Origin: a virus
Lineage: Duplodnaviria > Caudoviricetes
Direction: 5' to 3' (one strand)
IMG/VR virus record: IMGVR_UViG_3300027848_000021
Coordinates: 1 to 61,997 of that record
Length of the DNA stretch: 61,997 nucleotides
Part shown: positions 20,723-61,997 of the stretch, piece by piece
Layout of the letters: each line of letters opens with the position of its first letter
Numbering within the stretch: position 1 is the stretch's first letter
Notes under the pieces: generated by a model
What the model was told of the DNA's origin: nothing
What the model saw: the letters and a program-made list of their open reading frames with translations, nothing else
Database searches by the model: none
Position numbers and translations under genes: made by a program

Positions 20723-20736
20723 GTTTTATTCCTCCG

Positions 20737-22301: not shown

Positions 22302-22340
22302 GTTAGAAAAAATTGCCGTCAAGAGATTTATCACTATATA

Positions 22341-23425: not shown

Positions 23426-24063
23426 TAGATTCTCACCCGCCTATACCTTCTTACTGCCGATAATTCTTTTTCCATAAAACCCGTTTCAAGTGGCGCCACT
23501 TCTCTCGTTGTCAAGTCCTTTAGGCCGACCACGTCGTCGTGCATATTCTGCATTTCCCTGGTCGCCGCGCGCAAAATCATTAATTTGAACATTGGAATTC
23601 CGCCACCGATTAAGCCTGCCGTGTACGTGATAGTAACTACGTCGCGAGCGTAACCATAAAAATAATCGATACCGTATGACAGCTGCTGGTAATCCACCTC
23701 ATTCACGAGGGTCCGAATCGGGCCATTGATTGGTTTCACGGTGACCCCCTCTATCGAGATGACCGGAGTGTTATTGAGATATATCGTTTGCGGAGGCGTT
23801 GACCATGAGACCGCACCCACTGGAGAGTTGTCGCTATTCTGGTAGTCCGTACTGCCAACCGACAAAAAGGAAGAAGTCGGCATGCCGGTGTACCCAGAAT
23901 CTATAGTGTGTGACTCCACGAACTCCGTAGATTCCAGCGGTCTTCTCAGGTAAGCCTCTAGTTCACTTTGAAGGCCAGCGATGACCATGTCCGCGGCGTC
24001 CTGTTGTCGTAGCGAAAACGTAACATCCATATAGCTAACTAGGTCGGCGCGTGTTACCAACAT
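23425..24063 (-). CDS. Head-tail adaptor
   Basis: LEAYLRRPL, PVISI, VTITYTAG, YRRVR. Confidence 0.75.
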   Translation of the reverse strand: MLVTRADLVSYMDVTFSLRQQDAADMVIAGLQSELEAYLRRPLESTEFVESHTIDSGYTGMPTSSFLSVGSTDYQNSDNSPVGAVSWSTPPQTIYLNNTPVISIEGVTVKPINGPIRTLVNEVDYQQLSYGIDYFYGYARDVVTITYTAGLIGGGIPMFKLMILRAATREMQNMHDDVVGLKDLTTREVAPLETGFMEKELSAVRRYRRVRI

Positions 24064-35884: not shown

Positions 35885-37942
35885 ATGGCATGGAATCAAT
35901 CGAGCAACAAATCGCTCAATAACGCGAGTGGCAAATCACTTGGCCCTGGCATGCCCGTCGCCAACAACCCGTCCTTTGTGGGCAAGCCCTACAGGGATAA
36001 TTGGGACATCGAACGAGCCTATAAAGAGGGCATGCAGAAGGTCACGTGGGTTAATAGGTGTGTTGACGCGATTGCCGGAAACCAGGCGCGACTTCCTGTC
36101 ATGCTACGAAAGGACAACTCCCCAGACGGTGAGATTGTTACCGGCAGGGAAGCTAAACGCTCAAATATTCTGGAGATTCTAAATACCAAGGCGAACATGG
36201 GGGAAAATTCTTTCATTTTTCGCTACAGACTGTCCGCACAACTGCTTCTTGGCACCCGTGGCGTTTTCATTGAGAAAATCCGCGGCAGGGACGGTGGGGT
36301 TATCGCGTTGAGCCTATTGCCGCCACAGCACACCGCTCCGATACCGCACCCAAAAACGTTTGTTTCGGGATATGAAGTCGCAATGCCCAATGGAGATAAA
36401 ATCATCCTGCCACCACGGGATGTCGTTTGGGTAAGGCGCCCACACCCACTCGACCCGTATCTATCCCTAACACCCCTTGAATCATGCGGAATTGCCATAG
36501 AAATCGAGAATTTGGCGAAAATCTACAACCGCAACTATCTTCTGAACGACGGAAGACCAGGCGGTTTGTTGGTTGTCCGTGGGGAAATGGAAGAGCCGGA
36601 TAAAGAGGAGTTGCGCAATAGATTCCGCGGCAATATCTCCAGAACCGGCCACACGACGGTCATTGCGTCTGATGATGGTGTTGATTACATAGACACGTCA
36701 GCATCCCCCCGTGACGCCGCGTATGTCCAAATGCGTCAATTAACAAAAGAGGAGATACTCGCATCTTTCGGCGTGCCGGAGTCGGTAATTGGAAACGCAA
36801 GCGGCCGTACGTTCTCGAACGCCGCGGAGGAAATACGGGTGTTCTGGATGGAGACAATGTTGCCCCACCTCGAACCGCTTGCTCGGGCACTTGACGAGCT
36901 AGACGATGAGAATTATATAGATTTCGATTTAACTGAAGTTCCAATTTTGATGCTCTACAAGCAAGAGAGAGAACGATATTTGCTCCAGGAGTTTCAAACC
37001 GGCCTGATTAGCAATAACGAATACAGGCTTGGTTCTGGCAGAAAAGAGACCGATGCCGATTTGGCGGATTCGCTGCTCATGAATCCAAACCTGATACCAA
37101 TTGCAAATACCAAAAAGAAAATGGACGTAGTTCCAACGGCGGAGATGGGCGGTGTACCACCAGGGGCGCCACCAGGAGCGCCACCAGGAGCGCCACCAGA
37201 AGCACCACCTGGATTGCCGCCAGAGGCACCAGTCGACCCGAATACCATGCAGGGCGCCCTTGCGGCCGAAGGAGCACCTCCTGCTGGCGATTTGGCTCAG
37301 GCGCTTCCAGGGGATGCAGCACCAGCGAATACCGCAGCGCCGATTCCAGCCGGTGCCACCAGCGCGCAGACGGGTGGAATAATGCACAAATCGGACACAT
37401 TTGCCAAAGAAACAACGGCAATTGGACGATGGGAAGAAATCTTGGCGCGGAGTCTGGAGCGCGTCGTCGAGCGTCAGCAGAGGGTCGTGTTAGAAAAAAT
37501 ATCGGGTGCAAAGTCTAAGAAATCCCTATTTGCAGGAACCCTCGACGCTGAATACATTTTGAACTCCGATTTATGGAATAGACAAATGGACGAGGACATT
37601 CGTCCGGTCATATCGGCAATCATTCAGGAGTCGATGAATCTGTCCGCGGAATCAACCGAAACCAAGACGGCAGAGGATGGCATCTCCACCAAGGCCCAAG
37701 AAGACATACGGGTACAAGTCGATTCACAAATGGACCGCATAAAGCAGTTAAACACAAGCAATCAATCGGCGATTTCCAATATGATGCTCAATTCATTTAA
37801 TATATTTGACTTGGAGGAGCGGGCGTCGGCTTTCAAGTCCTCGGTTAACGGACTATATGTAGGCATTTTGTCTCAGCAGCAGCAAGATGTAAGCGAAGAA
37901 GAGACGCGCAGGGCGTGGGCGTTCGGAAAAGGCAATTTGTAA
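35885..37942 (+). CDS. HK97-family portal protein with Pro-rich linker and C-terminal extension
   Basis: CVDAIA, LSLTPL, NDGRPGG, ILASFGVP, TFSNA, NEYR; (PPGA)n at about 37155-37230. Confidence 0.93.
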   Translation: MAWNQSSNKSLNNASGKSLGPGMPVANNPSFVGKPYRDNWDIERAYKEGMQKVTWVNRCVDAIAGNQARLPVMLRKDNSPDGEIVTGREAKRSNILEILNTKANMGENSFIFRYRLSAQLLLGTRGVFIEKIRGRDGGVIALSLLPPQHTAPIPHPKTFVSGYEVAMPNGDKIILPPRDVVWVRRPHPLDPYLSLTPLESCGIAIEIENLAKIYNRNYLLNDGRPGGLLVVRGEMEEPDKEELRNRFRGNISRTGHTTVIASDDGVDYIDTSASPRDAAYVQMRQLTKEEILASFGVPESVIGNASGRTFSNAAEEIRVFWMETMLPHLEPLARALDELDDENYIDFDLTEVPILMLYKQERERYLLQEFQTGLISNNEYRLGSGRKETDADLADSLLMNPNLIPIANTKKKMDVVPTAEMGGVPPGAPPGAPPGAPPEAPPGLPPEAPVDPNTMQGALAAEGAPPAGDLAQALPGDAAPANTAAPIPAGATSAQTGGIMHKSDTFAKETTAIGRWEEILARSLERVVERQQRVVLEKISGAKSKKSLFAGTLDAEYILNSDLWNRQMDEDIRPVISAIIQESMNLSAESTETKTAEDGISTKAQEDIRVQVDSQMDRIKQLNTSNQSAISNMMLNSFNIFDLEERASAFKSSVNGLYVGILSQQQQDVSEEETRRAWAFGKGNL

Positions 37943-38052
37943 TTTCAGTAAACCACGATAAATAGTTTCGCTAAACTATCGTAATAAACAGCAATACCTG
38001 CGCTGCGAACCGGTTCTCTCGTTTATTCTAGAAGATGGCGACGAGGAGAAAA

Positions 38053-41000
38053 ATGCCCGCTACAGACTTCCCAGACATACACTATAAATCCAACTCGGGT
38101 CCGATTAATTTCGATACCGCGAAGGGAATTGTTGAATGTTTCGTTGCCGGCATTGGCAACAAGGACTCTGTCGGGGACGTTTGCGTGTCGGGAGCGTTCA
38201 CAAAGAGCCTGCAACGTCGGAAACCTCGCGTGGTTTGGGGTCACGTCTGGAATGAACCAATTGGCAAAGTTTTAGAAATATATGAAGTCCCAGCGAATGA
38301 TGCGCGTTTGCCAGCAAAAATGCGAGTTGCTGGGGTCGGAGGGCTGTACGCAAAGGTTCAGTTTAATCTCGGTTCCGAGAGGGGTCGTGAAGCATTTGCA
38401 AACGTTGCCTTTTTCGGCGAGGAACAAGAATGGTCTATTGGTTACAAAACGCTACGCTCGCAACAGGACCCAGTGCTCCAGGCGAATATGTTGTACGAGG
38501 TCGAACTCTATGAAGTAAGCCCTGTTCTCCACGGCGCAAACCAGATGACCGCAACAATATCGGTCAAGGACGACCAGACTGCAATAGAAATTGGTCACGC
38601 AGATTGCCCCGATGGAGCCTGTGACCTTGCTAAAGACGAATCCAGCGCCCCAGTCGAGGAAAAACATATTCCGGTTCAGGACAACACGTTTGACGCTGTA
38701 GCAATTAAAATTGGGAACGAATTATCGGCTCGTAGTGGTTCGATTATTAACGTAATCTCGTTGGAAAAAGCAGCGGTCGTGTTTACCCGTATGGCCGCGA
38801 ACGGTGATGTCGTGACCTACAGGTGCGGCTATCACTTTGACGGTCTCACTTTTATGTTCGCTCGGCCAGAGCGTACTACGCCCGGGATAAATGTTCCAGC
38901 CGTTACGCCGGTAATACCAAGTGTCAGCCCTCAGCTACCGCCCGTGCCGGTAAGACCACAAATGCCCCTCGCCCCAGTAGTGGCGCCGGTCGTTGTTGTG
39001 GCGCCGGTGCAGGTAAACCGTGTCGCCCTGTCGGTGCCTACTGTTGTCAAGCCAGGGCCTATGGGCATGGAAACTGTTGTACTGCCGCAAATACGGTACG
39101 AGAACACCCCTAAGCCTATCGATATCGCGGCGGCTATCGAGCGGGTACGCAAACGTAATGGATATAAGTCGCTTTTTGATTTTGGCGAAGTAACGGAAAC
39201 GGACTTTTTGGATAGTGTTGTTACGGGCAATAATCCGACCAGCATCCCCTACATCATTCCCGTTGCCATAAAAGATGCATACGCCGTTAAATCCCTGGTA
39301 GACCCTATTTTGGATTATTACAGAATTGAAGCCAGAGTGGAACCAGAGGGCATTGTCCTTTCGTCTGGAGTGACCAAAGACTTTGCGGATGCGGTATCTC
39401 TCGCCACCAAGGGACTCGGCAGAACAATTGGACGCGCGCTCTCTGCTGTCCGTCCGAACATCGGGGCAGGGAGGGTGGGTAGTCCAAACTTGCGTGGAGA
39501 ACGCAAGCGTGGGCGTGGTTTCAACTTCGGAATGCCCGAGGGCGACACGAACCCAATGACGCGCGAAGACGGCAACAGAGACGGCACGGTATTCGACGGC
39601 ATTCCCGGTTGGGAACAGCCAGACCCGACTCCCGGCGGTGCGGGCTCAATCGATAATCGTGAAGCGTCCGCCGCGCAGGAAGCTATTGCCGCGACATCTG
39701 GGAAACCGGATTCTGGGGCAATCAAAAAAGATGAAAAAAAGAAGCCGAAACTTTCATCAACTACTGACCCCGAACGTAAGCCAAGGGGTAATAACCTGTC
39801 GCGTGAATTTGGTGACATGACAGAGGAGGAGCACTCCCTCTACGGTCGTTACGATGAAGGGGGACGCGAGAGAAGAGATGCCGCCACCGGAAGAACCGCG
39901 CGCGACGATAATGCTGCGGACAAAAAGCGTGGCCAGCGTGATTCTGCCGCCCGCAGTGCTCGATTGCGTCAAGCGGAAGCCGCGGGGGACAGGGGAGACA
40001 GGGACGACGATGAGGCCAGCAGAATCAAACTCTCGTCGGGAAAAACCGATAGACGACATGCTGACCGTAGTGCGGAGATGGAACGGACCTTCCCAAATTC
40101 CGAGGAAAATAAAAAACGTCTCGCCCATGATGCCACTGCGGACACGTGGAGAAAAGATGGTTTCGGCTGGACCGAAATCCCTAGATACTCGGGAGATAAA
40201 AACAGGAGTCCAGATTATTTGCGTGGCAGAGAAATCGGATTCAATCAAGGGCGTTTGATGTGGGATGGCACTGGCGGACACAGAACGCGTCCCGAGAAAT
40301 TTAACGAGAAACAAAAATCATCCATCCAGTACGCGGACTGGTACGAAAACCTACTCAATTCCGTCAGCAGGTTTGTTGACGCGCATAAGGGCGGAGATGA
40401 TGTTGATGAGTGGAACGGCGTAGAGGCTGGCTTCAAAGAGGTAGTAATAACCAACGCTCCAGATACGTCTACGTGGCCATCGGACAGAGTCAAACGATTG
40501 GGCGATTTGATGGACAGGTATGACCCTAGTCTTAGGGGCAAAAACCCTAAGTCAACAGGAAAACTGTCCAGCGCGCATAACGCCGCAGGATTTAATGCTG
40601 GTATGGAATTTATTGCCCGAATTGGTGCTGGTCGAGAATTTAATAGAGAAAATAAGAAAAAGAAAAAGAATACGGCCAGACGGGCTAATTATCCATCCAC
40701 GCAACCCAGATTATCTTCGGGCGCGGGCAAAGAGATTGACGCTCCAGAAGAAGAGGCAGACAGACCACCTTCGGGCAACATAGGGTCCGACTATCGCAGG
40801 TTCGACCTAGAAACAACCGATGGCGGACCGAACCTGCTTGACGGCATGCATGATGAAATTTCACGTAGTCCAAAACTCCGCAGTAAAATCATGGGCGAAA
40901 TCGCGAGCATGCTTGGCGCTGCTGGCTTAACTGAAAAAAATGGTTACGACACATCACGTGCGTTTGATGTCTTGACAGGTTCCGAGAAAGACTTCGAAGA

Positions 41001-43005
41001 CCACATCGACGCACTCTCTGACGCGCGAGCCGCACTGGGAAGTGGTTCCTACGGCATGTTGAAGGCCAGGCTGAAGGAGTACGAGAGTTCGGCTGAGCAC
41101 ATCAAGGCGCAAGACGCTGCTGACGGCAGACTGCTACGCCTGGAACAGAATGCTAAGGCAATCCGAGAACGCTTAACGGCCATAGACAGAGCCAAAACGC
41201 TTTCAGCCCAACGCGACGACGACGCGATGAACAGCGCCGACATCGGTCAGCTCGTACTTGGCAAAGAAGAAAACGCCCTATGGGACGCACGAAATGATTT
41301 GGCTAATAAATACAACGTCGATAAACCAGAGAAACTCTCGTCAGGGAAAGCCGACAAGGTTGCTGACACTCTTGAGAACCACGGCGATTGGGAAAAAACC
41401 GATGACGGGATAGAGATATACCCACAGGGCAAAGATGTCGCTTACCAAATAGGCAATGTGGGCAAGGGCAAATGGGCCGTTACGAGGCATTGGGATTTTG
41501 AGAGAAACGCTGGGCAGGACGCAAAGGAATACGAACACGACAAAATATTCGCAAGCGTTTCTGCTGCGAAAAAATGGGCTGATGCAGACTTCAGAAGAGG
41601 CGAGAATAGCGAAAAACCTTTGCCGGCCGCTAAACGGAAGAAAACAAGCAAGTCATCTTCCGGTAAGAAGAACTCCAAAATGATTAACGGAGTCAAGATT
41701 GATGTTTCGCCGGGGGCAGAGTTAGATGGCGCGGATTTAGATGGGGCAAACTTAAAGGGCGCGAACTTAAAGGGTGCGTACTTGCGCCGCACAGACATGG
41801 GCGGCGCAGACCTATCGGGTGCAAACTTGGTTGGCGCAGATATGACTGAGGCGAAGCTAGTTAATGCGAATTTGAGTGATGCAGACCTAAGCGATGCCGA
41901 CCTGGGCGGCGCGGACTTATATTTTGCAAACTTAGAGGGAGCAAACTTAAACGGCGCGAACCTGATAGGCGCAAAATTTACTCGTGCGAAATTAATTAAC
42001 GCCAATCTGACGGATACGCAAATGAATGGCGCTGACCTAGTTGATGCGGATTTGACCGGTGCGGACTTAGAGGGCGCAAACTTACGCAAAGCGAAACTGG
42101 GTGGTACGAACCTAACTGGCGCAAACTTAATTGGCGCAACAATGCCCGATAATACAAAGTGGACGCCAGACACCGACATGACAAAGTGGACGAAACCGGA
42201 CAGATTCTCTTCTGGCGGGACAAATATCAAGATGATTAACGGAGTTGAAGTCGATATTTCGCCGGGCGCGAACCTGGAGGCCGCGGACCTGACTGACGCG
42301 GACCTGACTGACGTGAACTTGGCTGACGCGAACTTGCGTTTTGCAAAACTGAATGGTGCAAAACTGAATGGGGCGAAATTGAATGATGCAGACTTGAGAC
42401 GCGCGAAATTGACTAAAGCGGACCTGACTAAAGCGGACCTGACTAAAGCGACCTTGGAAAACGCGAACTTGACTAGTGCGAACCTGACTAACGCGAACCT
42501 GACTGGCGCGACCTTGGAAAACGCGAACTTGGCTCGCGCGAACCTACGTAACGCGAACCTGACCGAAGCGTACCTGCCTAACGCGAACTTGGCTCGCGCG
42601 AACCTGACTGGTGCGAACTTAAGTGACGCGATTATGTATGACACGGACCTGAGGAGCGCGAACTTGACTGGCGCGGACTTAACTAACGCGAACTTGACTG
42701 GCGCGAACTTGGAAAACGCGGACTTGTCTAAGGCGGACTTGACTGGCGCGGACCTGTTTCGCACGAACCTTACTAAAGCGAACCTGACTGACGCGAACTT
42801 GGCTGGGGCGAACTTGGCTAAAGCGGACTTACAGGACGCGACTATGCCCGATGGGACAACATGGACGCCAGACACCGATTTAACACAGTGGACGGGAGCA
42901 AAAAAACTCTCGTCAGGGAAAACCCCAAAATTCAAAGACGACCCACTATCCCCATTCAAAGATTTACCCGAAGATTCAATAGTCACGCTTGAAGGCGACA
43001 AATAA
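38053..43005 (+). CDS. Prohead protease (HK97/S78-like) fused to cargo domains; 5' part of polyprotein
   Basis: DSVGD, GAF, WGH, PIG, WSIGY, LYEVSPV..GAN in the first ~175 aa; GAGGAG RBS before ATG 38053. Confidence 0.9.
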   Translation: MPATDFPDIHYKSNSGPINFDTAKGIVECFVAGIGNKDSVGDVCVSGAFTKSLQRRKPRVVWGHVWNEPIGKVLEIYEVPANDARLPAKMRVAGVGGLYAKVQFNLGSERGREAFANVAFFGEEQEWSIGYKTLRSQQDPVLQANMLYEVELYEVSPVLHGANQMTATISVKDDQTAIEIGHADCPDGACDLAKDESSAPVEEKHIPVQDNTFDAVAIKIGNELSARSGSIINVISLEKAAVVFTRMAANGDVVTYRCGYHFDGLTFMFARPERTTPGINVPAVTPVIPSVSPQLPPVPVRPQMPLAPVVAPVVVVAPVQVNRVALSVPTVVKPGPMGMETVVLPQIRYENTPKPIDIAAAIERVRKRNGYKSLFDFGEVTETDFLDSVVTGNNPTSIPYIIPVAIKDAYAVKSLVDPILDYYRIEARVEPEGIVLSSGVTKDFADAVSLATKGLGRTIGRALSAVRPNIGAGRVGSPNLRGERKRGRGFNFGMPEGDTNPMTREDGNRDGTVFDGIPGWEQPDPTPGGAGSIDNREASAAQEAIAATSGKPDSGAIKKDEKKKPKLSSTTDPERKPRGNNLSREFGDMTEEEHSLYGRYDEGGRERRDAATGRTARDDNAADKKRGQRDSAARSARLRQAEAAGDRGDRDDDEASRIKLSSGKTDRRHADRSAEMERTFPNSEENKKRLAHDATADTWRKDGFGWTEIPRYSGDKNRSPDYLRGREIGFNQGRLMWDGTGGHRTRPEKFNEKQKSSIQYADWYENLLNSVSRFVDAHKGGDDVDEWNGVEAGFKEVVITNAPDTSTWPSDRVKRLGDLMDRYDPSLRGKNPKSTGKLSSAHNAAGFNAGMEFIARIGAGREFNRENKKKKKNTARRANYPSTQPRLSSGAGKEIDAPEEEADRPPSGNIGSDYRRFDLETTDGGPNLLDGMHDEISRSPKLRSKIMGEIASMLGAAGLTEKNGYDTSRAFDVLTGSEKDFEDHIDALSDARAALGSGSYGMLKARLKEYESSAEHIKAQDAADGRLLRLEQNAKAIRERLTAIDRAKTLSAQRDDDAMNSADIGQLVLGKEENALWDARNDLANKYNVDKPEKLSSGKADKVADTLENHGDWEKTDDGIEIYPQGKDVAYQIGNVGKGKWAVTRHWDFERNAGQDAKEYEHDKIFASVSAAKKWADADFRRGENSEKPLPAAKRKKTSKSSSGKKNSKMINGVKIDVSPGAELDGADLDGANLKGANLKGAYLRRTDMGGADLSGANLVGADMTEAKLVNANLSDADLSDADLGGADLYFANLEGANLNGANLIGAKFTRAKLINANLTDTQMNGADLVDADLTGADLEGANLRKAKLGGTNLTGANLIGATMPDNTKWTPDTDMTKWTKPDRFSSGGTNIKMINGVEVDISPGANLEAADLTDADLTDVNLADANLRFAKLNGAKLNGAKLNDADLRRAKLTKADLTKADLTKATLENANLTSANLTNANLTGATLENANLARANLRNANLTEAYLPNANLARANLTGANLSDAIMYDTDLRSANLTGADLTNANLTGANLENADLSKADLTGADLFRTNLTKANLTDANLAGANLAKADLQDATMPDGTTWTPDTDLTQWTGAKKLSSGKTPKFKDDPLSPFKDLPEDSIVTLEGDK
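41677..42894 (+). repeat. Two duplicated pentapeptide-repeat modules (41677-42192, 42229-42894)
   Basis: A(D/N)Lxx arrays; both capped by KMINGVxxDxSPGA and ATMPDxTxWTPDTDxTxWT. Confidence 0.95.
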
Positions 43006-43026
43006 AGAATCTACCCTGGTGACCGT

Positions 43027-46000
43027 TTGTCGTCAGGGTTCACGTACGGTGCTGAAACTGGCATCAAAACCAAAGACGAAATGTTTGAGTTCCTGAATGC
43101 GCAACTGATTGATGCCATCGAGAAGGCTGACCCAACATCATGGAAGATGCCATGGCGCGTTACCTCGATGCCCAACAACCCAACCACGAAAAAAACATAC
43201 ACCGGCACCAACTACATGGCGCTATCCATCATTGGGTCGGAGCGCGGTTACGCAAGTACACAGTGGGCTGGCTATGGACAATGGGAAAAAGTGGGCGGCC
43301 AGGTTCGCAAGGGCGCTAAGGGCGTACCAATTTTGGTACCGATTATGTTTAAGCCAAAGGATAAGGATGGTGCTGCCGACCCTGCATTGGGCGACAAAGT
43401 AAAGCGCGGCGGAATGGCGTGGAAGGTAATTCGGGTTTTCAACCGCGACGAGGTTGATGGTTTGCCTGATGACTATGGGGTGGTTGTAAAACTCGACGAA
43501 GGAACACGGGTCGAGAACCTAGAAAAGACACTCTCGGAAATAGCGCCAACGATTAATCACGGCGGCGCGAGGGCGTTCTATCGACCAAGCGACGACGCCA
43601 TAACTGTTCCCGCGTTTGCCGATTTCAAAACCGCCAGAGGGTACTACGGCACGGTTGCGCATGAATTGATGCACTGGACGGGTGGAGAAAAAAGATTAAA
43701 GCGCGCAAACATGAACCAATTCGGCAGTCCTGAGTACGCGTATGAGGAATTGATTGCGGAAATAGCGTCGTCAATGTTCCTTGCGGCACATGGGGTTGAA
43801 CCGGACATCCAGGATAACCACGCTCCATATTTGGCGAGTTGGCTGAAGGCGCTACGCAGTGACCCAACCGCGCTGCGACGCGCTATGAAGCAAGCTCAGG
43901 ACGCATTCAATTACGCAATGGGCTTGTCTCCGAGCATGACAAGGTTGTTTAAGTCAGAAGATGAGGGCGGATTAGAAGCAGATACCCCGGATGTTGCGGA
44001 AATAGTAACACCTGATTTGGGGTCCGGGGACAAACTTTCTTCAGGCGGCCGCCCGCGTAGAAGAATCGTCAGCCTAGAAGACCTGCCCGAATACAAATTT
44101 CCAACCGATAAATATGAAGCGAGTCCTCAACAGAAAACAATATCGAATGCTGTAGCGACTGGTGCGGACGTAGTTGTTAGGGCCCTGGCCGGAACGGGCA
44201 AGACTAGCACTCTCGGCGACATCGCGCGTCGCTTTCTGGGAGAAGAGCCTTCAACGAAGACAAACGACCCACCAACGAAAACGGGTGACCTGCCAGTAAA
44301 AATGGGCGCGACTGGCATGTTGACGCAGAAGCAGAAATATACGATAAAACCGGGCAGAATCGAAATCGAAAACGGCTTCCTTGTTAAGGACCGCATAAAA
44401 GAGGCCGGCGGGAAATGGGATGGCGCAAATAAGAAATGGTTCGTGCCGCTAAGTGATGATAGCGACGAACGGGAAGTCTTAAAGAAATTACAAAATCTGA
44501 CCAATCGTTTGGCGACGGGCGGACCATCCGCGGAAACGCGAATCATTTATCTTGCGTTCAATAAATCCGCAGAATTAAGCGCCAAGGGCGCTATGCCGAG
44601 CAATACCGAGGTTCGCACCGGCGACGCACTCGCTTGGGCGTTTGTAAGAAATGTAAACGAGAAGTTATTAGCGAAAAAAGAGAAGGGGATGAGAAACCTG
44701 AAGGGTATAGCGGGATACCTCGGCGTTAAGGGCATATTGATTGAAAGAAAAGGCGGCGGCGAGAAGAAAGAACTAACCCAAGAGGATATCGTGAGGGCGC
44801 TCAGTCACGCCGTCAAGCATTATTCCATCAGCGAGGACGATGAAATTTCGGCAAAGCATTTCGCCCCAATCCAACGGAAGGCATCAGGCAAGGTCGACGG
44901 CGTAAACTGGGATGAGTTTGAACTTCCTGAGGTGTTAGTCAAATTTGCCCAAAAGTACTGGAATGATTTGAATGACCCTGACGGAAAGATATATGCGGAC
45001 TTCACCCATTGGACGAAGATGTGGGCGCTTTCGCGGCCGGATTTCTCGGAAGAAATTCCGAACTCAAAAAATGGATTCGGTAGCGGCGTCGATATTGTAT
45101 TTTTCGATGAGGCCCAAGACATAAACCCCGTTATGGCCAGGGTCATACGCGAGCAGACAATTCAAAAAGTCTACGTTGGAGACTCGAATCAGGCCATCTA
45201 CGGGTTCCGAGGCGCAACCGATACGTTGTCGGAGGTGAAGGCAACCTACGATTTGCCACTTACGGAATCGTGGCGATTCAATCAGGCGATTGCTGATTTT
45301 GCTAATAAGTTTCTCGTAATTGCCAACGAAACGGAATTACGTGTTATTGGCAGAGGGAAGGGGGGCAAGATTGTTTATGATATGCAAGACGCCGACGTAA
45401 TTGAAGTCCGCACTAGGGGTGGAGCGCTTGATGCTATTCGGTCGGAATTGGCAAAAGGTCGCACGGTAGGCGTTTCTAAGAATTTCAAAACAAAACTCAC
45501 TACGTTTATCCTGCACGCCGAACACCTCGTACTGAAGAGGAGTGGCAAGCCAGAAAAGCAAAGCGACGACCTAGTCGGGTACGAGTCGTGGAAAGAGGTC
45601 TTGGATGCGGTCGAAAAGGGGGATGAGCCACAACTGGCAACGCTGGTAGCGATAGTGCTGGAACAGGGCGAGGGCGTAGATGGTATCAATAAACTAAAAG
45701 ACCTCCTCGGTAGAGTCAGGGAAATAGGGAGTGCCGGCCCTAGTGACGACCCGATAGACGTAGAAATCACTACGGCCCATACGTCGAAAGGCGGGGAGTG
45801 GCCCAAGGTCAAAATATGGAAAGATTTCTGGGGTCCGCGAAAAAATAAAGTGACCGGCGCAATAACCATGCCAACGCAAGAGGAATACCGCATTGCGTAT
45901 GTTGCGTTAACTCGACCCACATCAGAATTGGACCCTGGCAGTTTGAAGTGGATTCTAGAATACGTCCCAGATGGAGATGACAGGCTCTCATCGGGCAGGC

Positions 46001-47820
46001 GTGCCGCGCGGCGTGCTGGAGCAGCGGATAAATTATCTTCCGGCAAGAAGAAAAAACCTTCCGCGAACGCACGACGCCGCCCAGCATCGGCGGAAGAGCG
46101 TCAGTTGTTCGCTGATGGCCGTCGCAATCGGGCGCAAACAATTCAGGGGAAAAAGAAGCCAGGACCGTCTACTGATGAATTTACCGACGGTGATACATTC
46201 TCATCAGGTCGGGCCGCTCGTCTGAATAGACGCCTTAGTAGTGGTGGGTTTAATTCGACCGAGAATGATACCGCGCCAGCCCAGAGGCCATGGTTTATCC
46301 CCGAGGGCCTAACGGGGGACTCCATCGGGAGTATCGGGAAAAGCGACATTAATCCCGACAGGCAAACGGACTTCATCGGAAAACTCTCTGACAACGACGG
46401 GTACGACGGCAACGCTGATACGCCATGGTATCTGGATGCAAAAAAGTTTAGAGACCTGCTCAGAGACAGCACCGTAGACGGGGATGGCAAGCGCATCCCG
46501 GGCGAGCCGTGGAGCGACGCGAAGGTCATGGAGCTTTTGAATATTAGCGAGAAAAATGTAAGGCGTCTCAGCGAGCCCGGCGTAGGCATTAAGTCCAGCA
46601 TGGTCGAACACGTAATGGAAACAGTTGGGGACAAAAACTTACATGGTTACGAAATGCAGGAAAGACTTGAGGCCACGTGGGGTTTTAATGCGTACCCGTA
46701 TTGGTACGATATCGACGATGAGGCACTCAGCAAAAAGGAATACGACAGATTGGTAGACCGCAACAGGCGGGGGGAGGTGCGGACCGGTAGTGGCTATAAG
46801 CCTGGTGATTTAGAGGCGCCCGTCGCACTACCTGACAGGGCCGAGCGACCAACGCCCAAAGTGGTAACTGCCGAAGCGGCAATAACTTCAAAAAAACTGC
46901 CAATGGAAAGGCTCTACGAATTCTTGGAGCTCTCGCCCGATGACACGATGGAAGAAAAAGAAAAAAAGACCGGATTACGCAAAGCCGACATTAACAACTA
47001 CGTAAAGAACGGTCTTAACCCCGCGGTCCTCCGAGGCCTCATTGCCAGGGGCACTATCCCGAATGCCCAAACCCTTTTTGGTGAGGTCGGCAAAACATTC
47101 GACATGCAAGCGCCCCAGCCCTATCTGTTCCTTCGGATTGAGGATTTCCTCAGGGAAAAGGGGCACAAAGTCGCCGGTACTCCTAATCTTGACTTTATCG
47201 TAGGCGAAAAGAACATAGCTGCACTCATCAAAAAACTGAGAGCAAAGCCAGACCCACTCGCGGTTGATGCCCGCACTAAGCATTACTCCCCCGATGAGCT
47301 AGGCGCAGTCGTAGGCAGGATTAATGAAAAGTTTGCAACAGACTACGTCCCTGACGAAATATTCCCCCGTGATGAAAACGGCATACCCAAGAAGCTAAGC
47401 AGCGGCAGGGCGTCGACGAGCGGCTCCCGTAGGGTGTTCGGTTCTTCGTCCCGCGGAAACAGACTTGGCTCTGGCGCCACCGTGGAGGCTAGGAATCTTA
47501 CCGGCGCCCGCGGGTTCGAGCTGAACAGGCGTATCAATGCAATTGATGACAGAATCAAGAAAGCCGGCCTCAGTAGGGGCCTGGCTACACAGGCTAGAGC
47601 GCGAGCCGCTAAACAGAATAAGCTTGCGTCCGGGGCAAAGCCGGCAACGAATATAACCCCAAAAATGCAGAATGAACTAATCTCTTGGGCAAAGAACGGT
47701 GGTAAGTGGAGCAATTTCGCTAAAACGATGCTGGCCGCCTTCGAGGAAAACGGCAAACTGTCGCCCGGCCAGTGGACACGCTTAATGCAAATCCACGATT
47801 CCACTGTTAAGCGTCGCTAG
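43027..47820 (+). CDS. ArdC-N + zincin metallopeptidase + UvrD/SF1 helicase polyvalent protein; probable 3' part of the polyprotein
   Basis: WKMPW, YTGTN, QVRKG, AFYRP, HELMH, EELIAE; AGTGKT, DEAQD, VGDSNQAIYGFRGA, TAHTSKG, YVALTR; in frame with the upstream ORF. Confidence 0.9.
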   Translation: MSSGFTYGAETGIKTKDEMFEFLNAQLIDAIEKADPTSWKMPWRVTSMPNNPTTKKTYTGTNYMALSIIGSERGYASTQWAGYGQWEKVGGQVRKGAKGVPILVPIMFKPKDKDGAADPALGDKVKRGGMAWKVIRVFNRDEVDGLPDDYGVVVKLDEGTRVENLEKTLSEIAPTINHGGARAFYRPSDDAITVPAFADFKTARGYYGTVAHELMHWTGGEKRLKRANMNQFGSPEYAYEELIAEIASSMFLAAHGVEPDIQDNHAPYLASWLKALRSDPTALRRAMKQAQDAFNYAMGLSPSMTRLFKSEDEGGLEADTPDVAEIVTPDLGSGDKLSSGGRPRRRIVSLEDLPEYKFPTDKYEASPQQKTISNAVATGADVVVRALAGTGKTSTLGDIARRFLGEEPSTKTNDPPTKTGDLPVKMGATGMLTQKQKYTIKPGRIEIENGFLVKDRIKEAGGKWDGANKKWFVPLSDDSDEREVLKKLQNLTNRLATGGPSAETRIIYLAFNKSAELSAKGAMPSNTEVRTGDALAWAFVRNVNEKLLAKKEKGMRNLKGIAGYLGVKGILIERKGGGEKKELTQEDIVRALSHAVKHYSISEDDEISAKHFAPIQRKASGKVDGVNWDEFELPEVLVKFAQKYWNDLNDPDGKIYADFTHWTKMWALSRPDFSEEIPNSKNGFGSGVDIVFFDEAQDINPVMARVIREQTIQKVYVGDSNQAIYGFRGATDTLSEVKATYDLPLTESWRFNQAIADFANKFLVIANETELRVIGRGKGGKIVYDMQDADVIEVRTRGGALDAIRSELAKGRTVGVSKNFKTKLTTFILHAEHLVLKRSGKPEKQSDDLVGYESWKEVLDAVEKGDEPQLATLVAIVLEQGEGVDGINKLKDLLGRVREIGSAGPSDDPIDVEITTAHTSKGGEWPKVKIWKDFWGPRKNKVTGAITMPTQEEYRIAYVALTRPTSELDPGSLKWILEYVPDGDDRLSSGRRAARRAGAADKLSSGKKKKPSANARRRPASAEERQLFADGRRNRAQTIQGKKKPGPSTDEFTDGDTFSSGRAARLNRRLSSGGFNSTENDTAPAQRPWFIPEGLTGDSIGSIGKSDINPDRQTDFIGKLSDNDGYDGNADTPWYLDAKKFRDLLRDSTVDGDGKRIPGEPWSDAKVMELLNISEKNVRRLSEPGVGIKSSMVEHVMETVGDKNLHGYEMQERLEATWGFNAYPYWYDIDDEALSKKEYDRLVDRNRRGEVRTGSGYKPGDLEAPVALPDRAERPTPKVVTAEAAITSKKLPMERLYEFLELSPDDTMEEKEKKTGLRKADINNYVKNGLNPAVLRGLIARGTIPNAQTLFGEVGKTFDMQAPQPYLFLRIEDFLREKGHKVAGTPNLDFIVGEKNIAALIKKLRAKPDPLAVDARTKHYSPDELGAVVGRINEKFATDYVPDEIFPRDENGIPKKLSSGRASTSGSRRVFGSSSRGNRLGSGATVEARNLTGARGFELNRRINAIDDRIKKAGLSRGLATQARARAAKQNKLASGAKPATNITPKMQNELISWAKNGGKWSNFAKTMLAAFEENGKLSPGQWTRLMQIHDSTVKRR

Positions 47821-47967
47821 AAGAATTCAAGGATTGAACACCATGGGCAAAACTGATACTTCTTACGATAACTGTGTAGTAGGTTATACTTTAGGAAACA
47901 AGGTTTACGGTAATAGCGCTGGCTCTGGCGGCCAGTGTGTCAATTGTCTTTTAAGGAGCTCGGTCTT

Positions 47968-49542
47968 ATGAAGTTTGACGATAAAAGCATGGTCGGTATT
48001 GGTGCGGATGGCAACGTCATAACATGCGCTAAATTACTGAGTCCTGCCGACTGCGGCTTCGTCAATGGTGCTGCCGTTTGTGGAAAATGCGGCGCAGCGC
48101 CGGTACGTGTCAAAATAGCCCCAATGGAGAGCACCGAGGAAGACGATATGAAAGATAAAGCATACGAAACAGGGCACACAGAAACACCAGTTCCAGCAGC
48201 CAAAAAGAAACTCAAGCCACGAGAGCTTGTCATCCCCGATGCAGCGGAGCCAGAGGGCGAAGTATTAGACGAGGACATCGACGGCTCGGAAGAAGAATTG
48301 GACGAAGAGGGTAATCCTATTCTCAAAAAGACCGACGAAGAGGAATTGGACGAAGAGGGCAATCCCGTCGTCAAGGAAGCGGAAGAGGAATTGGACGAAG
48401 AGGGCAATCCCGTCGCCAAGGACGAGGAACTAGACATCGACGATGACGATGACGATGACGACGACGATGAGGAGGAGCTGGCCGAAAAGGGCTCAAACTG
48501 GAGAATCCCGCCAAAGAAGTCGTCTAAGAAAAAGAAAATTGCCGTAGATGAATACGGCGACCCAGTTGGGGAAGACATCGATGATGATGTCGAAGAGAAG
48601 TCCGATGAATCAGGCATGGACGTTTTCCGTCAACTCCGACTGGAATCATTAGGTCTGTCAAGTGACGAATTTGGTTCAGACGGTTTTATATGCGCCATTG
48701 AGCGCAAGTCACTTCTCGGTGGGGCGTCGGTTTGTGACGACTGCCCTGGTGGGTGCATGGCCGAAAAAGGAATGCCCAGCCTGCTCCATGTCGAGGGCCT
48801 GGCTGAGGATATGTTCGGTGGCACCGTTCTTGACTCCGGTTATTCCGCAGACGCCGACATGTTCGTGGTTGACGTACAAGTCAAAGACGGCAAGGCTGTC
48901 GAGATTTTCGTTGACGGTACATCCGGCGAAGTTATGGGTTGGCACAAGCTTGATAGCAATATCTTCGAGCAGAAATCCGCAATTGATGAGGTCCAGTTGA
49001 TTAGCTTCAATGAGGCCGCAGAAATCGCCGTCAAGTCAATTGATGGACATGTAGTTGCGGTCGAGCCAGACACGTTTGAGGGTCTCGATGCGTACGCGGT
49101 GGAAATCGATGCGTTTGACGGCAAGTCATACGACGTATTCGTTTCTCTCGACGGCGAAGTCCTCGGCTACGACAAGTACGAGCAAGATGAGGCCGAAGAG
49201 ATTGAAGCGGAAGCCGCAGAAATTGCTCTCAAGAGAGCTTTTAGTGATGAAATTCGCACCCAAATGGCGGCAGAGGGTTCCGCTATGGCGGATGGTTCAT
49301 TCCCAATTAAGTCACAAGAGGATTTGCGTAACGCGATTCAGTCTGTTAGTAGAGCGGAAGACAAGACCGCTGCCCGCAATCACATCATGAAGCGCGCAAC
49401 GGACCTCGATATGGTGAACCTAATTCCGGCTACATGGGTGGCTGGCGTGGAGGAGAAATCAGCACCAGACATCGATACTGATGGCGATTTCTTGAAACAA
49501 CTCGTTGAGTTCCAATTGCTAGAAATAGATAATAACTCGTAA
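47968..49542 (+). CDS. Acidic head-region protein: Cys clusters, (EEELDEEGNP)3, PepSY-like repeats, C-terminal DGSFPI domain (DUF6582-like); possible scaffold
   Basis: AAGGAG RBS; ISFNEAAEIA...YAVEI...DGEVL; AMADGSFPI...LRNAI...LIPATW. Confidence 0.75.
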   Translation: MKFDDKSMVGIGADGNVITCAKLLSPADCGFVNGAAVCGKCGAAPVRVKIAPMESTEEDDMKDKAYETGHTETPVPAAKKKLKPRELVIPDAAEPEGEVLDEDIDGSEEELDEEGNPILKKTDEEELDEEGNPVVKEAEEELDEEGNPVAKDEELDIDDDDDDDDDDEEELAEKGSNWRIPPKKSSKKKKIAVDEYGDPVGEDIDDDVEEKSDESGMDVFRQLRLESLGLSSDEFGSDGFICAIERKSLLGGASVCDDCPGGCMAEKGMPSLLHVEGLAEDMFGGTVLDSGYSADADMFVVDVQVKDGKAVEIFVDGTSGEVMGWHKLDSNIFEQKSAIDEVQLISFNEAAEIAVKSIDGHVVAVEPDTFEGLDAYAVEIDAFDGKSYDVFVSLDGEVLGYDKYEQDEAEEIEAEAAEIALKRAFSDEIRTQMAAEGSAMADGSFPIKSQEDLRNAIQSVSRAEDKTAARNHIMKRATDLDMVNLIPATWVAGVEEKSAPDIDTDGDFLKQLVEFQLLEIDNNS

Positions 49543-49563: not shown

Positions 49564-52500
49564 ATGAAGACGGGTGGGCCGGTCTATAAAACGCGGATAA
49601 TCGTATCGAACAGATTCGTCTCCCCGCTGGTCGGAAGAAAGTCGTTTAACGACTCTGCGATTAATTTCAAAAAAGCAGTGCTGCTATCGATGGATACGCC
49701 GCGCCTTGACGCTAACGTGTCGGCGAAAGCCGCTAATCTGGGCAGTTCGATTGGCGGCACGGGTAAATCTACGTCACCGGATACCGATAATAAGAAACGC
49801 TCGACAGACGGCGCACCTCCCGGGCTAATCGAACTACCGGGAGGCTATCGCTACCTCCCCAACGCCACGGCCGATGATGGAATGGTGCTGAATCTATTCC
49901 CATCCGCTTTCAGTAGGGAATCATATTCCAAAGAACCAAACTTTGGTTGGGTGAAAAAAGCCAAGTCGGTAACCATCGATGAGTACGAGGAATATCAAAA
50001 AACCGCTCCACGGATTCGGATGCGAAAATATAAAGTCAATTCGCGAACCAATGACATTATCCTTGAAACAGAGCAAGAACTTGACCCGCTGTACGTAAAT
50101 GCGCACCCAAGTCCAACCCGCGTTGATGCTGGGGATTTACCCCTGGAACAAAAATCGTTAGGGGACAATCTTCAAAAGCTAGTCCCCGGTGGGTCTCTCT
50201 TGCAGCGCGCTGTTGGGAGGCTGGGGATTATCAGAGATGAACTGAATAAATTACGCTGCCCGCCAGGAACGCCGGCAGCGAATCAGTTTACGGATGCCCT
50301 CGGCTCGAACTGCTTCGGTGTTTCAGCAGGCAAGATTGCCAACTACGCCATGGATATGGCGCAAAAATTCGAAAAAGAATTAACCCCGTTTAGGAACACG
50401 GCCAAGAACGTTAGTAATTTCCTGTTTGACGTAGACCAAGGACGCTATGGCGCGTTGTTTGCTCGAACGGTTTGGTATGACGCAAACGGGAACAAAATCA
50501 AGAATATTCGCAAGTGGCGAGATATCCCCCAAGAGGGCGATGGCGCGTGGTTCGTCGGCGGCATGGCTCGCGCACAGGAGCGCCTGGCGCAGCAGGACGG
50601 CAATCTTAAGAAGATTTACGACAGTCTTGGAGTCATTCGGACTCCTACTATGACTAAAAACGAAGACGTCGTTCAGGCTTTTGAGGAACTGAAGCGCCGC
50701 GGACTTTGGGTCGGTGCGTTGAATGACCGTTTCAGTGATGTCGAAGTCGACCGAATTATAAACATGAGATTAAGAAGCATTTCCGGATTCCACGGTCTGT
50801 CCAAAGAACGTCAAGACGCACTACGCGCGGCGGACACTAAGCGTTGGTACGACAATGAGCGGGCGATATTAGAAGCACTGCTGGAAGAGCATTCTCTGAA
50901 CCCGAGGCATTTTGCTCTAATCGAATCCATTAACTACGAAATGAAGGTTCCGGGGACAGACGGCTACGACGAAGCAAGTGCCGCACCAACAGTTTTTGGA
51001 CCTAATGGCTTGCAGAGTAAAATCAATATAGACCTAACAGCGATAATGCGAAATCAAGAGCAAGAAATACCCGGGCTAAAACCAGACGAACGCACGCGCA
51101 TTGACGTAGTTGGGGCGAGAACAAGCGCTGAAGCCGGCGCTCATCTCGCAGACTTTTTGACTAGCGTAAACGTGAACGCCAAACAGATGGCGGCAATGGT
51201 CGAGGCGCGCGCCTATGCGCGTCATATAGCAAAACACGAATTCGCTCACACCATACAGATTGCGGCATTCGGGGAGGCCATAAAAGCCCGTATTAACGCT
51301 AATGGATTTATTGAAGTAACAAATGCCAAGGGGAAAGTGTCGCAAGTTTCAGACATTACAAAACTCACATCTAGCAACATATTCTCGATTATCCAAGACG
51401 TCGGCGATGGTATCGACATGGAAAGCCTTCAAAACGCTCTGTCACGCCTTGACGTGGTGGCATTTTTGGCTGGCAAATATCCACGAGAGTACTACGACGA
51501 GAAGGGCAAGACGGAAGTTTGGGCGATGGAGGTTACCGCTGAATTGTGGAGCCTTAGGGACCTCGGTTTAATCTATGGCGACGATATCGATGCGGCTCTG
51601 GAATACATGGACTCAATCATGGACAGAAGACACGCAAGTGCTCGAATTCTGTCCGATTATGATGCCATCGAAGCAGATTCCGCGCGATATTTCAACATTC
51701 CAGAAGAAGGCACGGGGGGAATTGAAGACCTGGCCGCAAGAGAGGCCGCCGAAGCCAGACGCGAGCTCAAGGAACTAAAAAACACATATTCCACGATGAG
51801 TGAATCGCAGCTCATTGAGGAAATTTCGTTAGAGAAGGCCCGGGTCGACGCCCTTCGGATTAGTGGCGCGGATGAAACGTCCCCCGAACTAGAGAGACAC
51901 CAAAATCGCTTGAGGGCAGCAGAATCCGCGTGGCGCAAAAAATACGGAGTCGGCGGTGCTGGTGACAAAAAAAATCTAAATCGAAAAGTTGACCAACACA
52001 GAACGGACAGGGGTCTGCACTCACCTGAGCGCCTAGCGGAGGATAGCCGTAAGGCCAGAATGAGGGAAGTACGGCTGGCGTCAGAAGCAATGGACGTGGG
52101 AGAAATCACCCAAAAGCTCGCTGATTACGAAGTCAAATTAAGAGACGCGTCCCTTCCGGCGGACGAGCGTTCCGCATTATTGGAAGAAGTGAAATTATTT
52201 AAAACCGCATACAAAGCTAGATTAGAAGAGGGTGGGGATTCCCGTACGTGGGCTCAGCAACGACGTGAGTTGGAAAAGAATATTGATTTGATTCTTCGTC
52301 CCGAGAGACCGCTCAGGAAAGTGCACCGTATAGCGACAGACGTTGGCGCCCAAAGGTACAGCAATGAGCAAAGAGCCAAGCTTCTGCAAAAGGCAACCCC
52401 ACAACAACGTCATGCGATAGTTGAGCTTGGAGATGCAAGCCAATCCGCAATAGGTCTTTTGCTTGACCCAGAATTCCAACAAGACGCCATTGATGCAATC

Positions 52501-61075: not shown

Positions 61076-61997
61076 ATGTCGCAAGACAATGCAAGAGTTA
61101 CCGAGCTGCAATCAGCTCTCCGTGGCAAGATGGCCGACAATAAAGCCATTGCCGATTCATTCGTCGTAGAGAACGGCACCGTCGTTGTATCTACCGAGCA
61201 GAAGTCAGCGTTTGACAAGAACATGACTGACATCAAGGAAATCAAAAGCCTCATCGATGGCATGCAAACAATGGACAGTGTCGACGCGTGGGCATCAGCT
61301 CCAGCAGCGACAGTTGCCGGCGAGTTTGCGGCAGCATCAGCACAAGTCGCTCAGCTTTCGTCACGCGAAATTAAGACTGTTGGCGAACAGTTCCTGGATT
61401 CCCCGGAGTTCAAGTCACTCGCAAACGGCCGTAATGGCGCAAACATGGTTGCCGCATGGCAAGCAAATGCCTCGTTCCATGGCCTGAGCCAGAAGGACGT
61501 TTACACCGCATTGCCAACCGGCACCCCGGGCAGCTTTGGCACAATTCAGCGCGATGCGATGGTGACACCGCCGACACGCACGAAGCGTGTCCGTGACTTG
61601 TTCCCATCCCGCACCACGACAGCCGCGGTCATTGAGTACTTCCGTCAAGTCGGCTTTACTTCTCTCGGAGAAGCAACGACCGTCGGTGGTTCACGTAGTG
61701 CGGTACCGTCGAATGCCGCAGCGGCAGTCGCTCAGCGGACAGCCGATGACTCGGCCTTCGCCGCGAAACCAACATCTGGATTCCAGTTTGTTGGTGAGCA
61801 AGCAGCAGTTCGCACCCTCGCGCACTGGGAAGCTGCACACAGAAACGTTCTCGCCGATGAGCCGCAGTTGCGCTCAATCATCGACAACGAGCTCATGTAC
61901 GGTCTTCGTTTGCTCGAAGACAACCAAATTCTGAACGGCAACGGCTCGGGCGAAAACCTGCGCGGTGTCCTTCAGACACCAGGTATCCAGACCTACA
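61076..61997 (+). CDS. HK97-fold major capsid protein (3'-partial; not in ORF track)
   Basis: AGGAG RBS; RVRDLF, VRTLAHW, LRSIIDNELMYGL, EDNQILNGNGSGENLRG closely parallel HK97 gp5. Confidence 0.95.
   Translation, partial: MSQDNARVTELQSALRGKMADNKAIADSFVVENGTVVVSTEQKSAFDKNMTDIKEIKSLIDGMQTMDSVDAWASAPAATVAGEFAAASAQVAQLSSREIKTVGEQFLDSPEFKSLANGRNGANMVAAWQANASFHGLSQKDVYTALPTGTPGSFGTIQRDAMVTPPTRTKRVRDLFPSRTTTAAVIEYFRQVGFTSLGEATTVGGSRSAVPSNAAAAVAQRTADDSAFAAKPTSGFQFVGEQAAVRTLAHWEAAHRNVLADEPQLRSIIDNELMYGLRLLEDNQILNGNGSGENLRGVLQTPGIQTY

Follow-up and report, generated by a model that had tools for sequence, protein, structure and literature searches.

The window analysed here is the whole of a 61,997-base IMG/VR viral contig (IMGVR_UViG_3300027848_000021; CheckV completeness 41%), which we assign to an uncultured freshwater phage of the myovirus type with a genome of about 150 kb. 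Between its portal and capsid genes lies one late gene encoding a cargo polyprotein, headed by an S78 prohead protease and punctuated by a recurrent [KR]-[LF]-S-S-G peptide, referred to below as the junction peptide (Table 1). On the plus strand the portal gene is followed by the polyprotein region, the gene of an acidic protein of 535 amino acids (aa), a 2,287-aa open reading frame (ORF), five smaller ORFs and the start of the capsid gene; the S78 gene thus sits in the head module, with the portal on one side and the capsid protein on the other. The minus strand carries the large terminase, a presumed tape measure and a Baseplate_J gene. A megablast search with 35885-47820 gave zero matches among 50,697 phage records, and the nearest cultured phages, reached by protein comparison only, were Gordonia phages with about 40% capsid-protein identity.

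Translation of the record with table 11 gives two ORFs in the same frame, 38035-43005 (1,656 aa) and 43027-47820 (1,597 aa), separated by a single TAA, the second beginning at the Leu codon of an RLSSG. Logan contigs from four public runs belonging to three studies, one of which runs may be the source sample, were compared with the window over 42000-44000. In the contigs of all four runs (one contig per run, with depths of 102.6, 23.9, 11.8 and 9.5) position 43005 is C, not A, and the codon is TAC, encoding Tyr. The phage population thus has a single ORF, and the TAA of the record is a rare variant or an assembly error. The first-pass annotation had read the region as one polyprotein headed by a protease, and both the Pfam match to S78 at its head and the TAC codon uphold this. 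Its start at 38053 also stands as the better one, since GAGGAG lies 7 nucleotides (nt) upstream of this ATG; residue numbers are counted here from the upstream ATG at 38035.

Seventeen copies of the motif lie in one frame of the polyprotein, and every position and peptide given for them in the first-pass annotation was correct (17/17). The strict form [KR][LF]SSG has 11 copies, where 20,000 shuffles of the residues gave 0.015 on average; [LF]SSG has 13 copies where 0.11 were expected, with a shuffle maximum of 3. Leu is encoded by CTC, TTA, TTG, CTT or CTA in the different copies, and the Ser-Ser pair by TCG-TCG, TCT-TCG, TCG-TCA, TCT-TCT, TCA-TCG, TCT-TCC, TCA-TCA, AGT-AGT or AGC-AGC. It is therefore the peptide that is conserved and not a DNA repeat, as had been proposed. 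A 14th [LF]SSG, VLSSG at 39355, belongs to a domain of module 1 that is conserved and predicted with confidence to fold, so it does not count among the linker copies, and one extra strict match at 39131 is off-frame inside the polyprotein gene. Six-frame translation of the whole window added four further strict copies in long ORFs, two in the 2,287-aa ORF and two in the tape measure. The peptide thus recurs within 38053-47820, as described earlier, but is not confined to it.

Pfam analysis of the polyprotein identified Peptidase_S78, two pentapeptide blocks, ArdcN, MPTase-PolyVal, DUF5710 and UvrD helicase parts, in agreement with the two pentapeptide modules, the ArdC-metallopeptidase and the UvrD helicase recognised by eye in the first reading. 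The borders of the domains in module 1 were taken from an alignment of 30 relatives together with the AlphaFold confidence profile. The PF00805 match (E = 1.4e-96, 12 stretches) corresponds to two regular beta-helices with a predicted local distance difference test (pLDDT) score around 90 in the AlphaFold model. ArdcN (E = 1.3e-21) followed by an HExxH zincin, MPTase-PolyVal (E = 2.5e-38), is the layout of ArdC-type anti-restriction proteins, and this unit, predicted to act in anti-restriction, was modelled confidently. None of the 17 sites falls inside a Pfam-matched stretch. The linkers were modelled over aa 1186-2022 (837 residues, 10-row alignment, mean pLDDT 71.9), where the residues with pLDDT below 50 (1-27, 202-211, 438-493 and 789-837 of the model) lie between confident domains and hold all five of the sites in this segment. 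The proposal that copies mark the borders of modules is borne out by both results; the AlphaFold profile is better evidence for this than a disorder proxy, which is inflated because the motif itself supplies K, S and G. Cutting at every site, and only then, would fit the earlier estimate of 15 or more released proteins, as there are 15 inter-motif pieces of at least 30 aa.

A natural variant is found in contigs of runs X5 and X8, in which 42184 is joined to 42887 across 8 shared bases. The resulting in-frame loss of 702 nt is exactly pentapeptide module 2 and leaves one pentapeptide module. In several lineages a DUF6321 domain is inserted right after S78 (L061:12019-13776, L037:4794-12164); the window is without it.

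To place the gene among relatives, we carried out a portal search, which returned 69 related viral loci (L numbers). In 17 of these the ORF after the portal holds at least three [LF]SSG, with a maximum of 16 in L005; most of the remaining loci run into a contig end or fall into other code classes. BLAST matches to module 1 were found at 61 loci, with S78 N-terminal in all 61. The ArdC/zincin module occurs at 15 loci, either somewhere between positions of about 990 and 1,900 or in another giant ORF, and pentapeptide modules occur at five. Modules 13 and 15 lie ahead of the ArdC module in L010 and L011 and after the helicase in the window. Equally, Pfam content differs between the giants of six relatives, and S78 heads the ORF in all six. 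Relatives with the same modules as the window encode them in a single ORF of 2,954-3,153 aa.

The residue ahead of Leu depends on the lineage, being K or R in the window's group and G-G in L022. Distant relatives without LSSG carry another recurrent peptide at equivalent sites; five such codes are listed in Table 1, together with the Met-type code of three complete genomes. The Met-type peptide is present in about 10-17 copies over five or six giants, none of which is fused to the protease. In the complete relative G012, [LFM]SSG occurs in 8, 3 and 7 copies in three giants and only singly elsewhere. As had been expected, a junction peptide is thus kept in homologues whose cargo differs; the order of the cargo changes too, and the peptide itself is not the same throughout, as lineages differ in their code. 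G015, a genome with the Met-type code, also has two LSSG-like sites.

Some relatives have a split version of the gene, in which the S78 ORF ends early. At all 12 such loci the giant ORF that follows lies in the -1 frame and overlaps it, with a run of seven or eight A just before the stop; the junctions are of four types, one in each of four relative lineages. The downstream ORFs at these A-runs have no nearby start codon, and that of L040 continues sequence which the unsplit L046 and L038 encode in frame ('FDPNA[IV]DGDEDGLVQEGTPFER'). From the sequences, this suggests that the A7-A8 junctions are sites of programmed -1 frameshifting or transcriptional slippage that would extend the protease unit into the cargo. 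Together with the continuity in L040, the A-runs and the -1 overlap argue that the link between module 1 and the cargo is actively maintained, perhaps in a fixed proportion. An A6+A7 run at 39724-39740 lies just ahead of the first junction peptide of the window gene, which contains 17 runs of at least six A, and we therefore make no frameshift claim for the window.

The presumed tape measure of the window carries the junction peptide twice. Its homologues in five long contigs have a code-type peptide in the same Gly/Ala/Pro-rich region, near aa 575-615, including GGLSSG in G011, NGMRS in G004 and AGMAS in G002. G012 has RLASG, plus RFASG at the N-terminal site, at aligned columns. AGMAS in the tape measure of G001 is a mismatch with that phage's own SSRS code. 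As the tape measure carries the lineage's own code, the reader of the code would also meet the tape measure.

Table 1 Features of the window and of related loci. Positions without a locus name refer to the window; L numbers are related loci.
Feature	Position	Strand	Remarks
Cargo polyprotein gene	38053..47820	+	about 3,255 codons with Tyr at 43003-43005; full-length chain ~350 kDa
In-frame TAA of the window record	43003..43005	+	TAC (Tyr) in public runs
Peptidase_S78 (HK97-type prohead protease)	38128..38562	+	aa 32-176; PF04586, 38.1 bits against a cut-off of 21; phrog_3244 head maturation protease
Rest of conserved module 1	38683..39429	+	domain A aa 217-284, Pro-rich stretch, domain B aa 404-465 (holds VLSSG 39355)
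Pentapeptide-repeat module 1 (beta-helix)	41716..42189	+	Pfam PF00805, PF13599, PF13576; confident AlphaFold beta-helix
Pentapeptide-repeat module 2	42238..42834	+	Pfam and AlphaFold; missing from a natural variant
ArdC-like module	43093..43890	+	ArdcN 43093-43440 and MPTase-PolyVal zincin 43516-43890 with HELMH; phrog_7245 anti-restriction protein
UvrD-type helicase module with DUF5710 insert	44122..45930	+	Pfam UvrD-helicase, UvrD_C, AAA_19, AAA_30, DUF5710; phrog_1967 DNA helicase
KLSST	39748..39762	+	junction peptide
KLSSG	40027..40041	+	junction peptide
KLSSA	40561..40575	+	junction peptide
RLSSG	40708..40722	+	junction peptide
KLSSG	41332..41346	+	junction peptide
KSSSG	41650..41664	+	junction peptide directly ahead of pentapeptide module 1; pLDDT <50
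RFSSG	42202..42216	+	junction peptide separating the two pentapeptide modules; pLDDT <50
KLSSG	42904..42918	+	junction peptide; pLDDT <50
RLSSG	43024..43038	+	junction peptide; pLDDT <50
KLSSG	44032..44046	+	junction peptide; pLDDT <50
RLSSG	45982..45996	+	junction peptide
KLSSG	46030..46044	+	junction peptide
TFSSG	46195..46209	+	junction peptide
RLSSG	46231..46245	+	junction peptide
KLSSG	47392..47406	+	junction peptide
RLGSG	47461..47475	+	degenerate junction peptide
KLASG	47620..47634	+	degenerate junction peptide
Second giant gene, 2,287 aa	49564..56427	+	two junction peptides and an unannotated HExxH...ExxxE domain
HExxH...ExxxE domain, first third of second giant	50845..51834	+	HEFAH 51235-51249 (aa 558), ExxxE 51529-51543
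KLSSG in second giant	53326..53340	+	junction peptide
RLSSG in second giant	55420..55434	+	junction peptide
Presumed tail tape measure, 1,465 aa	15004..19401	-	size, weak Peptidase_M15_3 match, Baseplate_J gene downstream
RFSSG, aa 35-39 of presumed tape measure	19299..19285	-	junction peptide
RLSSG, aa 574-578 of presumed tape measure	17682..17668	-	junction peptide
Large terminase gene	33286..35619	-	
Portal protein gene, directly upstream of polyprotein gene	35885..37942	+	Pfam Phage_portal, E = 1.3e-47
Acidic 535-aa protein gene	47935..49542	+	
Major capsid protein, 3' end cut by window	61076..61996	+	phrog_10 major head protein; N-terminal scaffold-like domain of about 92-95 aa
QLSSREIKTVG after capsid scaffold-like domain	61352..61384	+	QLSSRE 61352-61369, IKTVG from 61370
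A7-A8 junction types, four relative lineages	L068:13583-13613, L053:10614-10647, L040:13713-13776, L022:19638-19650		plus near-identical loci
GMRS code	L023, L069, L046, L038, L040		
GLAS/GFAS code	L037, L059		14 copies in L037
G[LF]SS code	L024, L030		
GGMSS code	L035, L068		
S[ST]RS code	L053, L063 group		
I-[ST]-G-[RA]-M-(G/S/A) (Met-type) code	L182-L187 (records G015, G016, G022)		three complete genomes, sister lineages

Three neighbouring regions were also noted. The 535-aa protein encoded next to the polyprotein is 25.6% Asp plus Glu and lacks the junction peptide; its C-terminal ~300 aa are 57-66% identical across all lineages, and it may be a scaffold or internal core protein. At L180:13405-15012 (record G004) a 536-aa ORF in the head module, with Zeta_toxin/AAA_33 and DUF3721 matches and one junction peptide, may encode another cargo enzyme. 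Gordonia phage ChisanaKitsune (L158, NC_071006.1, record 10536-23944) has separate genes between portal and capsid, annotated as RNA ligase, VIP2-like ADP-ribosyltransferase toxin, a 970-aa HNH endonuclease and two 'head maturation proteases', which may be the unfused counterpart of the cargo region.

Given the single ORF, the enrichment and peptide-level selection of the motif, its location in linkers, the shuffling of modules, the lineage-specific codes and the matching code in the tape measure, we consider that [KR][LF]SSG is probably a junction code of the polyprotein, at which a protease of the phage would process the chain and which is specific to the lineage. The chain consists of the N-terminal module 1 (S78 and two small folded domains) and about 14 cargo modules, several of unknown family, joined by disordered linkers that each carry [KR]-[LF]-S-S-G. 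For packaging, cleavage and ejection we infer the following course. Module 1 would carry the chain into the procapsid, where it would be cut at the junction peptides into about 15 pieces. These would be held in the head and then enter the next host with the DNA, and the ArdC, helicase and DNA-mimic-like pentapeptide modules could counter the defences of the new host.

Three candidates for the cutter were found, namely S78, MPTase-PolyVal and the HExxH domain of the second giant. The first-pass annotation had allowed for S78 or a zincin, and both stay on the list; the HExxH domain lies outside the stretch 38053-47820 that it described. S78 is the most economical of these candidates, since each giant of the family that is linked to a protease has S78 at its head. 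The domain is present in every lineage, heading either the giant or its split version, with His70 and Ser134 invariant; His70, Ser134 and His166, which are candidate catalytic residues, do not vary in 30-31 S78 sequences. Among the nine largest ORFs of the full portal-to-capsid module of one G[LM]RS contig lacking MPTase, Pfam shows no protease family other than S78. An AlphaFold model covering aa 1-602 gave pLDDT values of 59-85 for S78; Foldseek with the whole of this model found no PDB match at E <= 0.001, and phmmer with the S78 domain gave only chance-level matches in the PDB. A complex prediction of S78 residues 1-190 with a 40-residue linker around the KLSSG at 42904, run without controls, scored 0.00 and speaks neither for nor against S78 as the reader.

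Several observations weigh against the proposed processing route, above all in the form in which S78 is the reader. No cleavage product has been observed, the nearest cultured relatives being the Gordonia phages. The S78 domain of relatives is 68-79% identical to that of the window whatever the code, with about 100 invariant columns and zero columns with at least three code-specific states. Such near-invariance is hard to square with specificities as unlike as LSSG and ISGRMG. The capsid keeps [FYIA]-K-[ST]-[IVL]-G in all lineages, which is unlike the junction code; K-[ST]-[IV]-G resembles the K103/S104 cut of HK97 (PMC10275583, from the part of the article available). The capsid peptide QL[ST]SRE is also found in G015, whose giants use the Met-type code, so that the capsid site does not track the code. 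The site in the tape measure would be out of reach for a protease confined to the procapsid, and two zincin candidates exist besides S78. Finally, genomes with the Met-type code encode their giants as genes separate from the protease, which argues that covalent towing is not general, and in four other lineages the fusion would arise only through the A7-A8 run and a -1 frame change.

Two possible signs of S78 specificity were considered and rejected. Lys57, Arg141 and Tyr/His154, seen by eye as residues of LSSG-class S78 domains, are inseparable from shared ancestry. Covariation at the scaffold/shell border of the capsid, which has L[ST]S in the lineages that could be paired with an LSSG-type code and GLRE in three of four G[LM]RS lineages, was discounted because G015 keeps QLTSRE.

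Less probable than processing by S78 or another phage protease at large, but a serious possibility, is that the junction peptides are cut specifically by a zinc protease (the HExxH domain first, MPTase-PolyVal second), with S78 maturing only the capsid and cutting perhaps taking place after ejection. Besides the window, all nine further lineages examined (LSSG, SSRS, G[LM]RS, GFSS and Met codes) have the HExxH domain, among them lineages without MPTase-PolyVal. It keeps H, E, H, E, E and G unchanged although identity to the window is only 15-36%, the fast divergence that a co-evolving reader might have, whereas S78 is nearly invariant. Many zincins favour a hydrophobic P1' residue, and with this preference fits the presence of one L, M or F in every code except S[ST]RS. 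Reading of the code outside the capsid would also explain the tape-measure sites, as head cargo and tape measure are both exposed after ejection. However, the HExxH domain matched no Pfam family (10 members scanned) and no PDB profile, and an hhalign comparison with the ArdC/MPTase alignment gave a probability of 0.13%. In ESM Atlas it had sub-0.9 matches to the LPD1 and LPD23 'large polyvalent protein-associated' clusters, and we take these as no more than a lead. With the motif as the evidence for peptidase activity, the domain is a candidate zincin.

For MPTase-PolyVal (PF18818), autoprocessing of polyvalent proteins has been proposed by Iyer et al. 2017 (PMC5512222), and all 10 further MPTase-positive genomes examined use an [LFM]SSG code, a link that may be plain shared ancestry. 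The domain was found in four of five and in 11 of 16 long contigs; it was not found in six G[LM]RS contigs, all of them fragments, nor in three of 10 genomes that are at least 90% complete. It is therefore not a general reader, although after this presence/absence test it may still be the reader within LSSG lineages. A near-frozen, universal S78 and a fast-evolving, universal HExxH domain are both compatible with the data as reader of the code.

It is less likely that the junction peptides are not cut and serve instead as flexible basic linkers, for docking (to the capsid interior, scaffold or portal), for spacing or for passage of the unfolded chain through the tail, with the polyprotein acting intact. 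The sites do lie in disordered linkers rich in K, R, G and S, which the adjacent acidic 535-aa protein of the head module could bind, and the lack of an observed cleavage product would be expected. N4 vRNAP, ArdC and TraC1 travel full-length (Iyer et al., PMC5512222). A mere spacer, however, would not hold four to six exact residues over 11-17 copies while the codons drift, would not be swapped genome-wide for another exact peptide in sister lineages, and would not recur in the tape measure in lineage-matched form. A binding role for the junction peptides is possible.

That the repeat is a functionless by-product of module duplication or recombination at linkers, each new module bringing a copy of its linker, is very improbable: the two pentapeptide modules do have near-identical tails (TKWTKPDRFSSG and TQWTGAKKLSSG), 'DSNRSGEKLSSG' occurs three times in L010 and a natural recombinational deletion has taken place between two such pentapeptide tails, but the flanks of most copies are unrelated, the codons are diverse, the same peptide stands in unrelated modules of three giants and in the tape measure, and different peptides are fixed in different lineages. 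Just as improbable is that the TAA at 43003 is real and that 38035-43005 and 43027-47820 are two genes with the ArdC-helicase protein made separately; besides the TAA of the record, an ATG at the 18th codon or so of the second ORF, near the point where the ArdcN match begins (ORF residue 23), would suit it, but the three studies agree on TAC, the frame runs on through a junction peptide without a Shine-Dalgarno sequence and the relatives with the same modules have a single ORF.

A fuller scheme, which goes well beyond the junction code itself and which we offer as speculation that is unlikely to hold in every part, would be a beads-on-string arsenal in this family of ~150-kb phages. The dedicated, fast-evolving zinc protease of the second giant would read a lineage-switching code and cut head cargo and tape measure only outside the virion, activating the enzymes in the new host, and the amount of cargo would be set, much as in Gag/Gag-Pol, by a -1 slip at the A-run.

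The system most like the processed polyprotein proposed here is that of the polyvalent proteins (Iyer, Burroughs, Anand, de Souza and Aravind 2017, PMC5512222; this and the articles below are cited from the parts of their text that were available). These carry two to 15 unrelated conflict-related domains per polypeptide, including MPTase-PolyVal and ArdC-N; those of phages are encoded beside portal and terminase genes and are predicted to be packaged, injected and proteolytically processed (PMC5512222). The window shares with them a single chain holding S78, two pentapeptide modules, ArdcN, MPTase-PolyVal, DUF5710 and UvrD, and a portal gene directly upstream with the terminase beyond it on the minus strand. 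Where an assemblin-like peptidase is present in them, it is C-terminal (PMC5512222), unlike the N-terminal S78 found here. A term search of that article returned no passage about a peptide recurring at junctions, about codes that differ between lineages or about sites in the tape measure, and 'linker' and 'pentapeptide' had 0 occurrences. What is new here in comparison with polyvalent proteins is an explicit lineage-specific junction code together with an N-terminal prohead protease.

In phage T4, internal proteins and Alt are encoded by separate small genes, carry an N-terminal capsid targeting peptide and are ejected with the DNA. The route proposed here would resemble the T4 gp21 system in that cargo in the procapsid would be cut at a short motif and ejected with DNA. 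T4 gp21 follows an I/LxE cleavage rule and also cleaves a cytoplasmic CD-NTase (bioRxiv 10.64898/2026.03.04.709575). A head protease therefore need not be confined to the capsid, which softens the objection that the tape-measure sites raise against S78. Unlike T4, the window has an S78 protease, the recurrent peptide [KR][LF]SSG and not I/LxE, and one protease-headed chain. The prohead protease of SPN3US and phiKZ (gp245 / gp175) acts at a defined motif on numerous head and ejection proteins (PMC10052503, PMC7411985, PMC5694885); it is T4-type and its substrates are separate gene products, with no lineage-switching code or tape-measure site reported in the parts of these articles available. 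HK97 gp4/gp5 shares with the window the S78 family and a capsid N-terminal scaffold domain of about 100 aa, but gp4 is small, stand-alone and without cargo, and nothing LSSG-like is described in the text available (PMC10275583).

In the openly accessible articles searched, no description of an LSSG-type junction code was found. Viral polyproteins with an embedded protease, such as retroviral Gag/Gag-Pol, are chains cut at repeated short sites by their own protease. The -1 change at a slippery A-run, which from the sequences would extend the protease unit into enzyme cargo in four relative lineages, is similar to Gag/Gag-Pol; unlike the window, these are systems of eukaryotic RNA viruses and retroviruses with unrelated proteases. 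The Dar system of phage P1 comprises large anti-restriction proteins with helicase and zincin domains that are packed into the head and injected. Unlike the window, they are made from separate genes, without a protease head or a repeated junction peptide. One of them, DdrB, is processed before its incorporation into the head (cited in PMC5512222).

If the junction peptides are cut, one gene and one packaging handle would deliver a dozen or more independent proteins, of anti-restriction, helicase, DNA-mimic-like and unknown kinds, into the next host, and new modules could be swapped in by recombination at the linkers. For polyvalent proteins, processing is so far a proposal, which the explicit sites and three candidate proteases described here would make directly testable. 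The lineage-specific codes would supply a natural set of orthogonal protease-site pairs, and the modules between the sites form a catalogue of candidate injected counter-defence proteins, mostly of unknown family. The apparent frameshift link would add to this a control of stoichiometry that is not described for phage head cargo in the literature found.

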